Shown: one piece after another, positions 3,604 through 14,271 of the stretch | How the letters are laid out: every line of letters starts with the position of its first letter | Numbering within the stretch: position 1 is the stretch's first letter | Origin: a virus | Taxonomy: Duplodnaviria; Heunggongvirae; Uroviricota; Caudoviricetes | Virus record (IMG/VR): IMGVR_UViG_2737471827_000006 | Coordinates: 1-42,725 of that record | Direction: 5' to 3' (one strand) | DNA: 42,725 nt | Notes under the pieces: generated by a model | Told to the model about the DNA's origin: nothing | Databases searched by the model: none | Seen by the model: only the letters and a program-made list of their open reading frames with translations | Made by a program: the position numbers and the translations under genes

Positions 3604-3889
3604 TACTGATAGCGCCATAACGTGAGCGGTAATTACGCAGGCGCGGGTCAATTTCAGGGAAGTGGGTATATGTGGCTTTGCGGAATGGTCGGATTGATGT
3701 CTGGTAAATTCGCTCGCGTTCTTCTTTCTCTGCAAGCCATATACAGTGGCGAAATTCCTTTTCCTCTTTCGTTTCCTGCGGTAGAGACATTATCCGGTCG
3801 TAGTTTTTTCTGAATTTATCCAGCACCTCCGATACGGAATTGCCGGAACAGCGGCGCGCGTCATCCGCACCATACAGAGGCGCTGGCAT
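3596..3889 (-). CDS. Hypothetical early-left protein
   Basis: 97 aa ORF with ordinary composition in operon context. Confidence 0.5.
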
Positions 3890-3912
3890 AATGGGAGCCT
3901 TATTTTCAGTAA

Positions 3913-4500
3913 TCAGAAAGGAGGGTAATCGTTCTGGCTGTAACCATAATCATCTGCATGATTCTGGCTTACGTTTTTAGAGCGATTGTCTTTATCTTTG
4001 AGATTGGCAACCATGTTGGCGATAGTTTCTGGTTGCTTGCCTTCTGCCTTTTCTTTAAGGGTTTGACCTGTTTGTGCAATAAACGGGATGCGTATTTCCA
4101 TCTGGTAGCTGTCTGCGCCAGTCTTTTTGTTTGTGGTTAATACTTTCTGGAGCACTAACCCGATTTTCTTTCCATGAAATTCAGGTGCAACAAATTTACT
4201 GGCGGAAACCATATGTTGCGTTAATTGTCCAATCCCGGCACACCCCATCATGGCGTGGACGACATTTGCGCCAAATTTATTTTCCGTTCCGTCATTTTTC
4301 TGAACACAGACGCTAAGATATTGGATTTTACGTCCGTCGTCGGATTCGCCAGAAAACTCAATAAATTTGGCTCCTTTTTCTGATTGCTTTAGTTCTGCTT
4401 CAGTAATGGTAATGATATGAGCGCCAGTTTCGTTAATAAAACCACCTTGCCCTGCGGTCAGTGCTGCTTCTTCGTTATAAGTAAAAATCACGTTGCTCAT
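3913..4500 (-). CDS. Phage SSB-like protein (DUF669-like) partnered with Sak4
   Basis: 195 aa; acidic aromatic C-terminal tip (DDYGYSQNDYPPF) reminiscent of SSB tails; sits immediately downstream of a Sak4-type ATPase, a known pairing. Confidence 0.65.
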   Translation of the reverse strand: MSNVIFTYNEEAALTAGQGGFINETGAHIITITEAELKQSEKGAKFIEFSGESDDGRKIQYLSVCVQKNDGTENKFGANVVHAMMGCAGIGQLTQHMVSASKFVAPEFHGKKIGLVLQKVLTTNKKTGADSYQMEIRIPFIAQTGQTLKEKAEGKQPETIANMVANLKDKDNRSKNVSQNHADDYGYSQNDYPPF

Positions 4501-5177
4501 GCGGCGTTTTCCTTAATTTGATGAACATTATTGATGCCGTAGTAATCACAAACAGTGGCATCGACGAAAGAGAGATCGTTATCAATCTCATTGGAGTCAA
4601 ACATTCCCATTGGGGATTTAACAGTGTCTGCACCGTTGTTTTTTGTGGTGAAAAAGAACTGGTCATCACGGGTAAGGGTGCGAAGAACTATAGTAAACAT
4701 GCCTTCGACAGTGATTTTCTCGTCCAGCATTTTGCCGATAGTTTTCATTTTCACGCGCCCCATAGGGGTTTCTTCGGTGTGTGCAAGAAAATAGACTCTC
4801 AGGTCATCAGGTGCATCCTGTGCAGCCTTAATCACCTCCCATGCGTGGCGGCCTATCTCAGTAAATTTATCAAACGATTTTTCTTCTGAGCGGCGCATAA
4901 ACTCATTGCTCATCACATACTGGAAGTCATCAACAATAACGATTCTTTTCCCGTATTCGTGAGCACGCTTAATTACGGCAACTATTACGTCCCATTTGTC
5001 AGTGGTAACTACGGTTCCTTTTTTTGCTCTGGCATCCCATGCAAGCCAGTCTTTTGATTTAAATGGTAGCGGCTTGCCTATTGGTTTTATAAGTATTGCT
5101 TCCTCTGGATTGATATTTCTCATGCTGGTTGATTTTCCGGTGCCAGATTCACCGAGTATTAATGTCGCAGTTCCCAT
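4497..5177 (-). CDS. Sak4-like recombination ATPase (RecA-fold)
   Basis: 226 aa; Walker A GESGTGKST near the N-terminus and Walker B-like IVIVDDF; occupies the exo/bet position. Confidence 0.8.
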   Translation of the reverse strand: MGTATLILGESGTGKSTSMRNINPEEAILIKPIGKPLPFKSKDWLAWDARAKKGTVVTTDKWDVIVAVIKRAHEYGKRIVIVDDFQYVMSNEFMRRSEEKSFDKFTEIGRHAWEVIKAAQDAPDDLRVYFLAHTEETPMGRVKMKTIGKMLDEKITVEGMFTIVLRTLTRDDQFFFTTKNNGADTVKSPMGMFDSNEIDNDLSFVDATVCDYYGINNVHQIKENAA

Positions 5178-5484: not shown

Positions 5485-5617
5485 TTTTTGGGACTCCTGG
5501 CTGATTAAGTATGTCGATAAGGCGTTTCCATCCGTCACGTAATTTACGGGTGATTCGTTCAAGTAAAGATTCGGAAGGGCAGCCAGCAACAGGCCACCCT
5601 GCAATGGCATATTGCAT
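5453..5617 (-). CDS. cIII: CIII (FtsH inhibitor that stabilises CII)
   Basis: 54 aa from internal ATG; MQYAIAGWPVAGCPSESLLERITRKLRDGWKRLIDILNQPGVPKNGSNTYGYPD matches lambda CIII as I recall it; AAGGAG RBS 5 nt upstream. Confidence 0.85.
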   Translation of the reverse strand: MQYAIAGWPVAGCPSESLLERITRKLRDGWKRLIDILNQPGVPKNGSNTYGYPD

Positions 5618-5645
5618 GGTGTGCTCCTTATTTATACATAACGAA

Positions 5646-10853: not shown

Positions 10854-12279
10854 TTTTTATGCGCCGCCCCATAGCATCGAGGCAGAGCAGGCGGTGATTG
10901 GTGGATTGCTTCTGGATGATGACAGCAGTGAGCGCGTCCAGAAAGTTCTGGCGATGCTGAAGCCTGATTCATTTTACAGCCGACCACACAAAATCATTTT
11001 CGAAGAAATAACCAGAATGCACCGGGAGCAAAAGCCAGTAGATGGCCTGACGCTTTTCGATGAACTGGAGCGTAAATCGTTAACGGCGTCTGTTGGCGGT
11101 TTTGCTTATATCGCTGAGATCGCAAAGAACACGCCAAGCGCCGCAAACATCGTTGCCTATGCAATGCAGGTTCGCGAAACCGCAATGGAACGCTACGCCA
11201 TCAACCGCATGACTGAAGCGACGGAATTGCTATATTCCCGCAACGGAATGACTGCAACGCAGAAGTACGAAGCTATTCAGGCGATTTTCACGCAACTGAC
11301 AGACCATGCAAAAACCGGATCGCGTCGCGGCCTTCGCTCATTTGGTGAGGTCATGGAAGACTGGGTTAGCGACCTTGAGAAGCGATTTGACCCGTCAGGC
11401 GAACAACGAGGAATGAGCACAGGGATCCCATCGCTGGACAGGATGCTGTCACCGAAAGGTCTGGTGAAAGGCTCTCTGTTTGTCATTGGCGCTCGCCCTA
11501 AGATGGGGAAAACGACGCTATACAGCCAGATGGCAATCAACTGCGCAGTGCATGAGAAAAAGCCCGCTCTGATGTTCAGCCTTGAAATGCCAGGTGACCA
11601 GATACTGGAAAAACTGGTGGGACAGAAGTCAGGTGTTAACCCGAATATTTTTTACCTTCCGGCGACAAATGACGCTGATGACGGCTATCAGGGTGATTAC
11701 GATGGTGACTTCAACAGGGCGATCGAAACAGCTAATCGTTTGAGTGAAATCGACCTGCTATACATCGACGACACGCCGGGATTATCTCTGGCTCAAATCG
11801 TTAGCGAAAGCCGTCGAATCAAGCGAGAAAAAGGATGTGTTGGCATGATTCTGGTCGATTACCTGACACTAATGACTGCTGAGAAGGCCGATCGCAACGA
11901 CCTTGCTTACGGCATGATCACCAAAGGACTGAAGAACCTTGCCAAAGAGCTTGATTGCGTTGTTGTGCTTCTGACACAGCTTAACCGCGCACTGGAAAGC
12001 CGAACCAATAAACGCCCATTACCAAGTGACTCGCGAGATACAGGGCAGATTGAACAGGATTGCGATTATTGGGTGGGGATCCATCGTGAAGGCGCTTTTG
12101 ATGACAGTGTTCCACCTGGTGAAACTGAACTAATCCTTCGTCTCAATCGTCATGGCAATACCGGCACGGTGTATTGCATTCAGGCAAATGGCGCTATTTA
12201 TGACACAGACCAACAGTCTGCTGAAATGCGCCGCCGTGAACGCGAGGAACCGCAGTCCAAGAAGAAAGGAGGATTCTGA
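10843..12279 (+). CDS. DnaB-family replicative helicase
   Basis: 478 aa from ATG at 10843 (track ORF starts at an upstream GTG); DnaB N-terminal motifs (SIEAEQAVIGGLLLD) and Walker A GARPKMGKT. Confidence 0.9.
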   Translation: MTDNFYAPPHSIEAEQAVIGGLLLDDDSSERVQKVLAMLKPDSFYSRPHKIIFEEITRMHREQKPVDGLTLFDELERKSLTASVGGFAYIAEIAKNTPSAANIVAYAMQVRETAMERYAINRMTEATELLYSRNGMTATQKYEAIQAIFTQLTDHAKTGSRRGLRSFGEVMEDWVSDLEKRFDPSGEQRGMSTGIPSLDRMLSPKGLVKGSLFVIGARPKMGKTTLYSQMAINCAVHEKKPALMFSLEMPGDQILEKLVGQKSGVNPNIFYLPATNDADDGYQGDYDGDFNRAIETANRLSEIDLLYIDDTPGLSLAQIVSESRRIKREKGCVGMILVDYLTLMTAEKADRNDLAYGMITKGLKNLAKELDCVVVLLTQLNRALESRTNKRPLPSDSRDTGQIEQDCDYWVGIHREGAFDDSVPPGETELILRLNRHGNTGTVYCIQANGAIYDTDQQSAEMRRREREEPQSKKKGGF

Positions 12280-12308
12280 TGACCATCTACATCACTGAGC
12301 TAATAACA

Positions 12309-12337
12309 GGGGCTATTTACACAGTAGCCCTTTTTTA
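12309..12337 (+). terminator. Intrinsic terminator (tR2-like, after the replication genes)
   Basis: Stem GGGCTA/TAGCCC with 9-nt loop followed by TTTTTTATT. Confidence 0.6.
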
Positions 12338-12363
12338 TTGGATTAAGAACGAGGGGGATCCTG

Positions 12364-12576
12364 ATGGACACCGTTAACGGAATGTGTTCAGACGCACCGC
12401 GTGCCAAAAAATGTAAATGCGGAAAATCACCGACAATATTCGACATGGAGAACGGGTGCCAAATCTACTGCGCTAACCACGCTGCTGTGGCGGCCGCGAA
12501 TTATCGCAGTGCGGTAACGGAGTGGAATAACCTGAAATCTGTTAGAGAGGGAAGTCATGAAAAAACTAACCTTTGA
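12364..12576 (+). CDS. Small Cys-rich hypothetical protein
   Basis: 70 aa; CKCGKSPTIFDMENGCQIYCANH suggests a metal-binding fold; GAGGGGGA RBS. Confidence 0.55.
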   Translation: MDTVNGMCSDAPRAKKCKCGKSPTIFDMENGCQIYCANHAAVAAANYRSAVTEWNNLKSVREGSHEKTNL

Positions 12577-13144
12577 AATTCGATCTCCAGCACATCAGCA
12601 AAACGCTATTCACGCAGTACAGCAAATCCTTCCAGACCCAACCAAACCAATCAATCAAATAACTCAGCAGAGACTTAAAGAAGTCCTTCTCTACGATGAG
12701 TTAACAGGGAAATTCACATGGAAAGTAAAGAAATGCCAGAGAATGAATGCTGGGGATATCGCAGGGCATAAGAGTAGCGAAGGCTACTGGGTAATAAAAG
12801 TCGATGGAAAACTTTATAAGGCACACAGGCTGGCGTGGCTCTATATGAATGGCAGTCTACCAAAAAGTGATATCGACCACATAAATCTCGTTAGGGATGA
12901 CAATCGTATAGCAAATCTTAGATTGGCAACTCGATCTCAAAACATCCAAAACGTAAACAAAAAGGCAAATAACAAATCAGGATATAAAGGCGTTTCATGG
13001 GATAAGAAATCAAGAAAATGGAGGGCGCAAATCGTAATCAACAAGAGGAAAGTTAATCTTGGGTTTTACGATGACCCAAAGGAAGCTCATAAAGTATATG
13101 CAAATAAAGCGGATGAATGTTTCGGCGAATTTGCGAGGTATTAA
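12557..13144 (+). CDS. HNH endonuclease with AP2 DNA-binding domain, fused in frame to the first 32 codons of ninB
   Basis: 195 aa; residues 1-32 MKKLTFEIRSPAHQQNAIHAVQQILPDPTKPI match the lambda NinB N-terminus as I recall it; then HNH motif (DIDHINLVRDDNRIANLRLATRSQN) and AP2-like segment (YKGVSWDKKSRKWRAQI...LGFYDDPKEAHKVYA). Confidence 0.8.
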   Translation: MKKLTFEIRSPAHQQNAIHAVQQILPDPTKPINQITQQRLKEVLLYDELTGKFTWKVKKCQRMNAGDIAGHKSSEGYWVIKVDGKLYKAHRLAWLYMNGSLPKSDIDHINLVRDDNRIANLRLATRSQNIQNVNKKANNKSGYKGVSWDKKSRKWRAQIVINKRKVNLGFYDDPKEAHKVYANKADECFGEFARY

Positions 13145-13145
13145 A

Positions 13146-13574
13146 ATGAAATGTGTCAAATATCACCTTACTAATGAATCTATAAGATATAACGCCATTC
13201 AGTATCTTAGGACATGCGATTTAGACATCATTGTCGAGTTTAAGCAGCGCAACCGCAGCTTAGACCAAAACAGGAAGCTTTGGGCTTGCCTTGGTGACGT
13301 CTCTCGTCAGGTTGAATGGCATGGGCGCTGGCTGGATGCAGAAAGCTGGAAGTGTGTGTTTACCGCAGCATTAAAGCAGCAGGACGTTGTTCCTAACCTT
13401 GCCGGGAATGGCTTTGTGGTAATAGGCCAGTCAACCAGCAGGATGCGTGTAGGCGAATTTGCGGAGCTATTAGAGCTTATACAGGCATTCGGTACAGAGC
13501 GTGGCGTTAAGTGGTCAGACGAAGCGCGACTGGCTCTCGAATGGAAAGCGCGATGGGGAGATCGGGCTGCATGA
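13146..13574 (+). CDS. ninB: NinB (Orf-family recombination mediator), downstream portion with replaced N-terminus
   Basis: 142 aa from ATG at 13146 (GAGG 9 nt upstream); from IVEFKQRNRSLDQNRKLWACLGD onward it matches lambda NinB residues about 33-146; the first 27 residues are unrelated. Confidence 0.8.
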   Translation: MKCVKYHLTNESIRYNAIQYLRTCDLDIIVEFKQRNRSLDQNRKLWACLGDVSRQVEWHGRWLDAESWKCVFTAALKQQDVVPNLAGNGFVVIGQSTSRMRVGEFAELLELIQAFGTERGVKWSDEARLALEWKARWGDRAA

Positions 13575-14098
13575 CTATCAAATCAAATACGCCGGCACAC
13601 GACAAGGACTGCTGGCAAACGCCGCTTTGGCTTTTTGATGCACTGGATATTGAGTTTGGATTCTGGCTGGATTCGGCTGCGAGCGACAAAAATGCTCTGT
13701 GCGCTCACTGGCTAACTGAGGCCGACGACGCGCTCAATTCTGAGTGGGTAAGTCACGGTGCAATCTGGAATAACCCACCGTACAGCAATATCAGGCCGTG
13801 GGTGGAAAAAGCCGCTGAGCAGTGCATACAACAGCGACAGACGGTAGTGATGCTTGTGCCAGAGGATATGTCTGTCGGATGGTTCAGCAAGGCTCTGGAG
13901 AGTGTTGACGAAGTTCGCATCATCACTGATGGACGGATTAATTTTATCGAACCATCGACAGGGCTGGAGAAGAAGGGAAACAGCAAAGGCTCAATGCTAC
14001 TGATTTGGCGACCGTTCATCAGTCCTCGACGGATGTTTACTACCGTATCCAAATCGGCATTGATGGCGATCGGGCAGGGCGTCAGGAGGGCTGCATGA
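13571..14098 (+). CDS. Phage DNA N6-adenine methyltransferase (Dam-like)
   Basis: 175 aa from ATG at 13571 (ATGA overlap with ninB stop); NPPY catalytic motif in IWNNPPYS. Confidence 0.85.
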
Positions 14099-14271
14099 GG
14101 CGACAGCGACGAAGCATCACCGACATCATCTGCGAAAACTGCAAATACCTTCCAACGAAACGATCCAGAAATAAACGCAAGCCAATCCCAAAAGAATCTG
14201 ACGTAAAAACCTTCAACTACACGGCTCACCTGTGGGATATCCGGTGGCTAAGACATCGTGCGAGGAAATGA
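14095..14271 (+). CDS. ninE: NinE
   Basis: 58 aa from internal ATG (AGGAGG 5 nt upstream, ATGA overlap with the MTase stop); [51 protein letters not shown] resembles lambda NinE. Confidence 0.7.

Follow-up and report, generated by a model that had tools for sequence, protein, structure and literature searches.

A probable homing-endonuclease cassette in ninB of lambda-type phages that takes its start codon from the target and brings a substitute for the gene head it displaces

The window, a 42,725-nucleotide stretch of DNA from a virus of the Caudoviricetes (IMG/VR record IMGVR_UViG_2737471827_000006), contains a ninB gene whose native head is fused in frame to an HNH-AP2 endonuclease, followed at once by a full-length ninB ORF. 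The 595-nt segment responsible is referred to here as cassette A. The anatomy of the locus can be read directly from the window and comprises the following features.

12557 to 13144, + strand: fusion ORF NinB(1-32)-HNH-AP2, 195 aa, unbroken in 20/20 loci.
12557 to 12652, + strand: displaced native ninB head, codons 1-32, now the start and leader of the endonuclease ORF.
12629 to 12652, + strand: left half of the putative homing site, invariant in cassette-bearing and cassette-free alleles.
12653 to 13247, + strand: mobile cassette A, 595 nt, with boundaries taken from alignment to HK97 and P27.
12653 to 13144, + strand: coding part of the HNH-AP2 endonuclease, fusion residues 33-195 plus the TAA stop, without a start codon of its own.
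13135 to 13148, + strand: NinB restart signal, with GAGG at 13135-13138, a 7-nt spacer that includes the TAA stop, and ATG at 13146.
13146 to 13574, + strand: re-headed NinB ORF, 142 aa, full length.
13146 to 13247, + strand: replacement NinB head carried by the cassette, 34 codons of foreign, AT-rich sequence (35% GC).
13248 to 13574, + strand: remainder of the resident lambda-type ninB, beginning at codon 39 (RNRS...) and including the stop, which together with 13146-13247 gives the 142-aa NinB.
13248 to 13259, + strand: CGCAACCGCAGC (RNRS), right edge of the putative homing site and the sole 12 nt between cassette A and a second cassette, B, described below.

Translation of the upstream ORF is served by the signals of ninB itself. 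The ninB ribosome-binding site lies directly 5' of position 12557, and residues 1-32 of the fusion are 100% identical to residues 1-32 of lambda NinB (PDB 1PC6), in agreement with the sequence-only reading, which had matched these codons to the lambda NinB N-terminus. The underlying DNA (12557-12652) matches the 5' end of HK97 ninB with 96.9% identity over 96 nt. The continuation in frame into an HNH-AP2 enzyme was likewise confirmed: Pfam matched HNH_3 at fusion residues 87-129 (E 9e-17) and AP2 at residues 141-181 (E 1e-6; 29.4 bits, under the 33.3-bit gathering cut-off), and the endonuclease part was also matched by phrog_99 (PHROG). Codons 2-62 of the fusion ORF contain no in-frame ATG, GTG or TTG, leaving no alternative start before codon 63, and the position occupied by Met in the HNH family reads ATA in the window. 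The GC content of the HNH-AP2 coding part is 39% versus 54% in the ninB body. RefSeq shows a pseudogene fragment here, next to an HNH gene given an ATA start, an annotation that hides the fusion.

The separate ribosome-binding site previously proposed for the downstream part was found as GAGG with the ATG at 13146; the GAGG lies within the last HNH codons, and the TAA stop of the fusion ORF occupies 13142-13144. The ORF beginning at this ATG was matched by the Pfam NinB profile over positions 4-131 of 131 (E 4e-46) and by phrog_72 (PHROG) across residues 1-141, and its product aligns end to end with HK97 NinB. From residue 36 on it is identical to lambda NinB 40-146, the first 35 codons being the foreign, diverged head, and the resident body is 98.7% identical to that of HK97 over 300 nt. 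A structure model of moderate quality (pLDDT 80) matched 1PC6_A over 141 columns with a TM score of 0.55. The gene had been described as split; it is instead re-headed, with a complete 142-aa NinB encoded downstream.

The sequence-only reading had also taken the start of this ORF for 27 unrelated codons, but the replacement head aligns with the heads of distant natural NinB lineages. An exhaustive search returned a relative of the head that is 50% identical (P0244, E 2e-4), a helix was predicted at residues 11-23, and a Pfam search with the head by itself gave no match. On the basis of the alignment, the one 50%-identical relative and the model, the segment appears to be a foreign, diverged NinB head. 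The NinB that carries it may be active. A frameshift in the head breaks NinB in 2 of the 20 loci while the HNH ORF is intact in all 20; NinB function is therefore dispensable.

Comparison with the uninterrupted ninB of HK97 showed that the 595 nt of cassette A substitute for 18 nt, GTAGTAACCATTCAGGAA, corresponding to ninB codons 33-38. An interruption of about 577 nt had been estimated earlier, which is correct as the net gain but does not describe the event itself, a replacement of 18 nt by 595 nt. The putative target site of the endonuclease, deduced from the junctions, is a 36-nt patch, CCAATCGTAGTAACCATTCAGGAACGCAACCGCAGC (codons 31-42), which is exact in 75/82 cassette-free loci and disrupted in carriers. 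The last 24 nt of the ninB 5' remnant showed a diversity of ~0 in both cassette-bearing and cassette-free sets. No gradient was readable in a check for co-conversion, the 24 nt adjoining cassette A being invariant in empty alleles too and the 3' diversity figures of this comparison resting on few sequences. A search for an internal promoter or terminator in cassette A found nothing exceeding the shuffled expectation.

Cassette A was present at 20 loci, where its copies are 98-100% identical (98.2-100%) and stand in 12 upstream and 8 downstream contexts. The ninB 5' remnants at these loci represent 14 different 96-nt alleles (79-100% identity), and the ninB bodies behind the cassette are of at least three kinds, either 89-97% identical or wholly different. 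A Salmonella P22-like ninB body (P0126) also carries the same replacement head. Because the arrangement recurs in 20 independent loci, it is not due to chance. Two pairs of empty and filled sites were compared. The flanks of HK97 and the window are 98.7% identical up to the junctions (the 300-nt left flank also being 98.7% identical), and those of P27 and a filled locus, L014, are 99.3% identical. The HK97 and P27 flanks are just 35-40% identical to one another, so the backgrounds of the two pairs are otherwise unrelated.

The cassette is rare. It was found in 8 of 5,426 E. coli genomes, compared with 1,369 carrying a lambda-type ninB, and in 0 of 50,697 phage records; the counts in IMG/VR were 11 against at least 582. 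Overall it is missing from about 99% of lambda-type ninB genes, with ~0.5% of sites occupied. The locus thus displays two hallmarks of a homing gene, namely presence or absence at one defined site with near-identical empty sites, and an element far less diverged than the alleles it occupies. A search for an HNH-AP2 gene directly upstream of native ninB, the arrangement expected to be ancestral, found none; a single relative linked to ninB is on record (L062 type), and it stands free, with ninB on one side and ninG on the other. The arrangement in the window is a derived, rare presence/absence polymorphism and not an ancestral state.

Two explanations had been offered from the sequence alone for this locus. 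A fixed gene split does not agree with such a polymorphism, whereas a mobile HNH element at codon 32/33 is borne out by ninB backgrounds that are unrelated yet share one insert at one site, and by the absence of this insert from about 99% of lambda-type ninB genes. The two points on which that claim depended, the NinB origin of the 32 residues and the derived nature of the arrangement, both came out in its favour.

The HNH motif columns D107, H108, N116, N120 and N129 are invariant across 37 relatives, and the catalytic motif is intact. With pN at 0.209 versus pS at 0.755 across the HNH coding region (pN/pS ~0.28), the endonuclease is under long-term purifying selection. Its intact HNH motif and C-terminal AP2 domain place it among the HNH-AP2 proteins, a recognised homing-endonuclease family (PMC10448857). 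The predicted structure has an HNH core folded like I-HmuI (Foldseek E 1e-3) and a C-terminal AP2 domain that fits those of plant TEM1 and ERF1 with an rmsd of 1.3-1.5 Å; the 32-residue NinB leader is modelled with low pLDDT and detached from the rest. Leaders from other NinB alleles occur on the same or a diverged HNH (P0001, P0002), and free-standing HNH relatives of 160-170 aa carry no NinB leader. A search of species-representative genomes found no close relative encoded there.

A sibling cassette with 66% amino acid identity to cassette A, and with synonymous sites saturated, has the same architecture of NinB leader fusion, restart and alternative head in two different contexts. Its restart, GAGG-TTTTGA-ATG, has the same layout as in cassette A. 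The replacement head of this sibling (L003 type) is known for 12 codons only, and exact-pattern scans of viral and metagenome contigs for its downstream part returned nothing new.

We consider it likely, with a probability of roughly 0.75, that cassette A is a homing-endonuclease element that resides inside ninB without an intron or intein, disrupts its own target, borrows the ninB start codon and replaces the head that it displaces. Cleavage, its target site, immunity and the activity of the re-headed NinB are the inferred parts of this scheme. The cassette consists of an HNH-AP2 gene that has lost its own start, the stop of that gene, a Shine-Dalgarno sequence with ATG, and a foreign 34-codon NinB head. 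The native head (codons 1-32) would give the endonuclease its ribosome-binding site, its ATG and a 32-residue leader, and since the native head supplies the translation start, any condition that leads to ninB expression from the early rightward transcript would also yield the enzyme. A complete NinB with the substitute head would be translated from the restart site, so that the recombination mediator would be kept. Insertion breaks the conserved 36-nt patch, whose left half then abuts HNH codons, and the counterpart in the new head differs at 13/24 positions; with the patch broken and so mismatched, a carrier should be immune. Should a carrier encounter a lambdoid phage or prophage with an empty site, the intact patch there would presumably be nicked or cut by the enzyme, and recombinational repair could then copy cassette A with the ninB 5' and 3' sequences as homology arms.

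A less eventful history, in which a lambdoid ninB and a foreign phage segment with an HNH gene in front of a diverged ninB were brought together by one illegitimate recombination, ordinary homologous recombination alone spread the chimera, and the nuclease is inactive or unrelated to ninB, is unlikely. The founding event was probably illegitimate, and such a passive relic would suit a foreign, AT-rich insert with a head like those of distant NinB lineages, the rarity of cassette A and the lack of an extractable co-conversion signal; a natural NinB head mosaic without any nuclease (P0139) is also on record. Yet the cassette is less than 2% diverged while lying behind 14 different 5' remnants and in front of unrelated bodies, and the exchange points lie no more than 24 nt and 12 nt from its edges, where passive spread would be expected to drag longer flanks along. 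The HNH ORF is unbroken in 20/20 loci against two failures of NinB, its catalytic motif is invariant, and a pN/pS of ~0.28 over saturated synonymous divergence accompanies a conserved architecture. Adaptive fusion is more doubtful again. Here the leader would be kept for a NinB-related property such as pairing with NinB or SSB at a break. In favour of this, neither the 20 copies nor the diverged sibling have lost the frame of the leader fusion, and the host gene product loads the recombinases required for homing (the role of Orf, PMC4118853). The missing alternative start codon suffices to explain the frame, however, and the leader is whichever ninB allele received the cassette (14 variants, 79-100% identity), is detached and of low confidence in the model, and is dispensed with in the free-standing relatives of 160-170 aa.

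Self-splicing, whether as a group I intron at 12653-13229 or as an intein, so that removal would yield a single 146-aa NinB, is very improbable. In its favour, with 12653-13229 excised codon 32 would be followed directly by the downstream ORF from its codon 29, in a hybrid of exactly the lambda NinB length, and ORFs in frame with the upstream exon are common in organellar group I introns. A search of Rfam, including group I and II introns, nevertheless gave no match at E<=10 in 12000-14200 and none at gathering score in the whole window; only ~85 nt lie outside the HNH ORF; and the downstream Shine-Dalgarno sequence, ATG and complete head, a layout kept in the sibling, would be pointless if excised. 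The group I intron suggested by the sequence-only reading was accordingly set aside, and its dismissal of an intein was upheld by the TAA stop at 13142-13144, the change of frame and a Pfam result limited to HNH_3 and AP2 with no Hint domain. Several observations do count against the homing-cassette explanation. Lambdoid phages recombine freely, and ordinary recombination could spread a 595-nt segment between ninB flanks; L014 has 12 nt of shared sequence at one junction, which is short for homologous repair; and an element that homes efficiently would not be expected at only ~0.5% of sites, except if young, costly or frequently lost. The lack of a Pfam match to the new head by itself, the moderate quality of the NinB model and the frameshift in the head at two loci weigh on the same side.

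The closest precedents for cassette A are the T4 MobA element and the mitochondrial mORFs. MobA is an HNH homing gene located within an ORF of the T4-like topoisomerase genes 39/60, with no intron or intein (bioRxiv 10.1101/2022.08.31.505936). Both elements delete a short piece of the target (55-75 nt for MobA, 18 nt for cassette A), carry a homologous replacement region, disrupt their own recognition site on insertion (for cassette A, putatively) and occupy the same site in several clades beside near-identical empty-site relatives. MobA differs in that its host protein becomes two reassembling polypeptides with added C- and N-terminal tails and requires a 50-nt ribosomal bypass, whereas with cassette A the upstream fragment would be functionally discarded and a whole replacement head would restore one full-length protein; the two required host polypeptides that mark the ORF-splitting Mob elements (MobA, MobE) are not found. 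In addition, MobA has its own start codon, while the nuclease of cassette A continues in frame from the displaced head and takes its start from the host gene.

Mitochondrial mORFs carry a foreign gene end, as in atp6 of Allomyces and atp6, atp9, cox2 and nad3 of Glomus (PMC3630166). In them, as in cassette A, an endonuclease ORF is coupled to a foreign version of a target-gene terminus, while the native terminus is displaced but kept next to it; cassette A has this full mORF-type constitution. In both, the endonuclease ORF may share the phase of the native gene, with hybrid genes as the outcome. The mORFs belong to fungal mitochondria, encode LAGLIDADG or GIY-YIG enzymes and replace the C-terminus. 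In cassette A, by contrast, the enzyme is of the HNH-AP2 type, the host is a temperate phage and the N-terminus is the part replaced, with the consequence that the displaced piece becomes the leader of the nuclease.

More distant parallels are found among other phage endonucleases. The free-standing HNH (Mob) and GIY-YIG (Seg) enzymes of T-even phages move by 'intronless homing' (PMC2988022), likewise without intron or intein and through break repair over flanking homology (as proposed for cassette A), and T-even Mob enzymes also join an HNH domain to a separate DNA-binding domain; their genes are intergenic and they cut hundreds to thousands of bp away, whereas cassette A lies inside its target gene at the putative site. 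MobE, according to the summary in bioRxiv 10.1101/2022.08.31.505936, is an HNH gene within a conserved gene of Aeromonas phage Aeh1, nrdA, whose function is kept, as may hold for cassette A; there, NrdA consists of two associating pieces and nothing is duplicated or replaced. The out-of-frame HNH in the methylase of actinophage ShiLan (PMC11855218) resembles cassette A as an HNH in a phage ORF with no splicing machinery and a homing-like presence/absence pattern; in ShiLan, translation of the host ORF continues in frame through the insertion, which becomes a tolerated loop, and the nuclease is in another frame, while with cassette A the host ORF stops and starts anew. I-HmuI (PDB 1U3E) has the HNH catalytic core fold predicted for the cassette A enzyme but is intron-encoded, has NUMOD-type DNA-binding modules and shows marginal sequence similarity (E 0.31). 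The Orf-HNH fusions described in PMC4118853 are unrelated, being DUF968 proteins of Gram-positive phages.

In Stx phages the 3' part of ninB holds a second HNH cassette, cassette B (P27 NUMOD4-HNH), which has a mirror-image layout and is a closer topological match to the mORFs than cassette A. Two loci (L014 and L088) carry both cassettes with their edges 12 nt apart, and only the 12 nt of CGCAACCGCAGC are left of the original ORF within the expressed NinB. We tentatively suggest, at somewhat less than even odds, that ninB of lambdoid phages is a hotspot for an undescribed phage strategy, 'gene-end replacement homing', in which two unrelated HNH cassettes each bring a substitute for the target piece and take over a translation signal of the piece displaced, cassette A the ninB start codon and cassette B the ninB stop codon with its overlap with the dam start. 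If this is true, homing endonucleases would themselves directly create mosaic joints inside genes of temperate phages.

Homing genes in coding sequence are usually tolerated by way of introns, inteins, split subunits, ribosomal bypass or a tolerated loop. Cassette A would add another route, in which a spare copy of the gene end is carried along and the displaced end becomes the translation start of the nuclease. Its host setting, the lambda-type phages of E. coli, is the most tractable system in phage genetics. Together with the mirror-image cassette in Shiga-toxin phages, cassette A may offer a concrete mechanism for sharp mosaic joints within genes, and ninB would be an example of a gene rewritten piecewise by selfish elements.

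The ninB locus comprises a fusion ORF, a downstream NinB ORF and a translational restart:

12557-13144, + strand: NinB-HNH-AP2 fusion ORF, 195 aa, called on the window.
13146-13574, + strand: downstream NinB ORF, 142 aa, starting one base past the TAA stop of the fusion ORF.
13135-13138 and 13146, + strand: NinB restart read from the sequence, with GAGG (13135-13138) within the last HNH codons, a 7-nt spacer and the ATG (13146).

The fusion ORF and lambda NinB/Orf (PDB 1PC6, E 5e-15) share residues 1-32 without a difference, and the 5' end of HK97 ninB is nearly identical in DNA to the stretch encoding this leader. The reading frame is unbroken from the leader into an HNH endonuclease starting at residue 33, with Pfam HNH_3 at residues 87-129 (E 9e-17) and AP2 at 141-181; in PHROGs, the NinB family phrog_72 spans residues 1-33 and phrog_99 residues 26-194. 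The downstream ORF is identical to lambda NinB 40-146 from residue 36 on. Together, these results confirm what the sequence-only reading had observed at 12557-13574, namely 32 lambda NinB residues, an in-frame HNH endonuclease and lambda NinB resuming in a downstream ORF.

The gene had also been described as split, which is incorrect: ninB is re-headed, and the downstream ORF is a full-length NinB. It covers positions 4-131 of the 131 positions of Pfam NinB, phrog_72 covers its residues 1-141, and one 4-residue gap is all that interrupts its end-to-end alignment to HK97 NinB. Its AlphaFold model (pLDDT 80) contains a helix at residues 11-23, and its match to 1PC6 chain A spans 141 columns (E 1.6e-15, TM 0.55). 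Its first 35 residues are MKCVKYHLTNESIRYNAIQYLRTCDLDIIVEFKQR. By itself this replacement head gave no NinB call by Pfam (the lambda head by itself scores E 3e-7), and it can be aligned to the heads of remoter natural NinB lineages, e.g. M-KQQYLLRNTNIRANAINAI...VVIEIKE. Besides copies of the same arrangement, the sole head match in an exhaustive search of 1.84 billion representatives was P0244, a NinB-type fragment 50% identical to the replacement head (MKQQFHLINESVKQNAINFIRTL..., E 2e-4). The codons preceding the NinB body, previously taken to be unrelated, align with distant NinB heads. The GC content of the head (35%) and HNH part (39%) versus the remainder of ninB (54%) indicates that both are foreign to the resident gene. 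A natural NinB mosaic was also observed (P0139), in which a different head of ~50 residues gives way at DVSRQVEWHGRW to a lambda-type body.

In-frame ATG, GTG and TTG are all absent from codons 2 to 62 of the fusion ORF, and ATA occupies the position at which free-standing relatives have their initiator Met; the N-terminal part of the nuclease is thus translatable only from the ninB start codon. In the structure model the NinB-derived leader is of low confidence (block means 57, 79 and 60), and the conserved, confidently modelled N-terminal nuclease part begins at residue 37. RefSeq annotation of the E. coli AVS0578 copy (NZ_CP124374.1; locus L002, 2918-3505) calls the leader a partial 'HNH endonuclease' pseudogene and takes ATA as the first codon of the HNH protein (WP_223202053.1), which conceals the in-frame fusion to ninB codons 1-32.

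The catalytic part of the nuclease model (pLDDT 87) resembles I-HmuI, a solved HNH homing endonuclease, and its C-terminal domain superposes on plant AP2 domains at 1.3-1.5 A. An alignment of 37 relatives shows no variation in the HNH motif columns. Proteins combining HNH with a C-terminal AP2 domain are a recognised homing-endonuclease family of phages, cyanobacteria and protists (PMC10448857). Beyond a sibling cassette described below, the next relatives are at most 59% identical, and those inspected are free-standing proteins of 160-170 aa whose first residue corresponds to residue 35. In four loci (L062 2359-3483; also L063, L065 and L071), an HNH-AP2 gene of 42% identity that has an ATG of its own stands free between a distant ninB homolog and ninG, so the family recurs in nin regions in ordinary intergenic form.

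Compared with uninterrupted ninB, 18 nt (GTAGTAACCATTCAGGAA, codons 33-38, VVTIQE) are exchanged for 595 nt at 12653-13247, a net gain of 577 nt. This insert, the nuclease part plus a spare NinB head, is henceforth referred to as cassette A. Across the site runs a 36-nt sequence that 75 of 82 cassette-free loci, phage P27 among them, share without a mismatch; it is the most conserved part of the ninB 5' region. By our count, the homologous stretch in the spare head is mismatched at 13 of 24 positions left of CGCAACCGCAGC (12 nt, RNRS).

Cassette A was found in 8 of 5,426 complete E. coli genomes, lambda-type ninB occupying 1,584 places in 1,369 genomes, and in 11 IMG/VR contigs versus at least 582 with uninterrupted lambda-type ninB. 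It was found in 0 of 50,697 phage records. Among 20 copies compared (the window, one E. coli chromosome, 11 viral contigs and 7 metagenome contigs), cassette identity was 98.2-100%. On its left, the 96-nt ninB remnant occurs in 14 versions (79-100% identity); on its right, the ninB body either shows 89-97% identity or belongs to a wholly different lineage. Flanks outside ninB form 12 groups upstream and 8 downstream. A Salmonella protein (P0126) joins the cassette A head to a P22-like NinB body. Flank identity, measured over 300 nt per side and reaching the junction, was 98.7% on each side for the window versus HK97 and 99.3% on each side for L014, a filled locus, versus Stx phage P27, whereas HK97 and P27, both empty, share only 40% (left) and 35% (right). 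Two unrelated backgrounds have thus received the same 595 nt at one 18-nt site. All 20 copies keep the fusion ORF intact. NinB is frameshifted in two (L089 and L090) by a common 1-nt deletion (TATCACC to TACACC) that falls ~30 nt inside the replacement head (~13172 in window coordinates) and leaves the 195-aa nuclease ORF unaffected; L090 carries an additional frameshift in the ninB body.

This presence/absence polymorphism rules out a fixed ancestral split, offered earlier as an alternative, since cassette A is rare and polymorphic among ninB loci. The group I intron also considered possible fared no better: a covariance search returned no Rfam family at E<=10 around the locus, and the HNH ORF takes up all but ~85 nt of the insert. 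At gathering score, the whole window gave no Rfam match besides the lambda cIII thermoregulator RNA element (RF01804, 88.5 bits; 5572-5630, - strand). An intein, already dismissed from sequence, is ruled out because a stop codon intervenes, the frame changes and Hint domains are absent.

We propose that cassette A is a homing-endonuclease element dwelling within ninB. The displaced native head would serve as its translation start, and translation of a complete NinB would be restarted with the spare head that it carries; the re-headed NinB is probably active. Empty ninB would be cleaved or nicked and then repaired by recombination, and carriers would be immune, the insertion disrupting the probable recognition site. 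Cassette A would be transcribed from the early rightward operon, because no promoter or terminator signal above chance was present within it. A terminator-like hairpin (12308-12332, + strand; 10-bp stem and T-run) separates the DnaB-like helicase gene from the small ORFs that precede ninB; such hairpins in the scanned region equalled the shuffled expectation in number. The window is a complete lambdoid prophage, with E. coli EC16 as its closest wider context.

A second HNH cassette, cassette B, occupies the 3' part of ninB in Stx phages:

L084 (Stx phage P27, KU238067.1) 1728-2586: cassette B.
L014 ~3720-4562: cassette B.

In P27 and relatives, ninB nt 127-414 give way to a foreign NinB body whose own stop overlaps the ATG of a NUMOD4-HNH_3 ORF (Pfam). 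That ORF continues in frame into the final 27 nt of lambda-type ninB, stop codon included (AAAGCGCGATGGGGAGATCGGGCTGCATGA, as in HK97); this stop overlaps the start of dam. The two cassettes are mirror images, A taking its start and B its stop from the piece of ninB that each displaces. At >=99% identity, cassette B matches 63 phage records, and 77 of 5,426 E. coli genomes contain it. Only CGCAACCGCAGC separates the edges of the two cassettes. Both occur in L014 (3001-4589) and L088, so that of the original lambda-type ORF the expressed NinB retains these 12 nt only.

Neither ninB cassette was found described within the incomplete coverage of the literature searched. The closest phage precedent of cassette A is the MobA element of T4-like phages, which deletes 55-75 nt of a topoisomerase gene, brings a homologous replacement region with it and breaks up the site that it recognises (bioRxiv 10.1101/2022.08.31.505936). 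MobA leaves the protein in two pieces and needs ribosomal bypass; cassette A instead restores full-length NinB. Fungal mitochondrial mORFs push aside the native C-terminal end of a gene and supply a foreign one (PMC3630166); cassette B is topologically alike, with cassette A as the counterpart at the N-terminus. Free-standing T4 endonucleases differ in lying between genes and cutting at a distance (PMC2988022), and in ShiLan the insertion is read through as a loop (PMC11855218).

The sibling cassette, found in L003 and L015 with two different upstream flanks, is 66% identical to cassette A in protein. Its leader is another NinB-type sequence, MRKQTFEIRTPLVQQNAIRTIQQLYPDLGKE, its replacement head starts MKTIRYHLIDES versus MKCVKYHLTNES in the window, and it shares the stop/Shine-Dalgarno/ATG layout and has ATA at the family Met position. 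The L003 contig also encodes (1-582) a T5orf172/MUG113 protein, of another homing-associated nuclease family, upstream of the O/P replication genes. For the HNH part, pS was 0.755 (saturated) and pN 0.209, indicating that the nuclease has long been under purifying selection and that the architecture is old.
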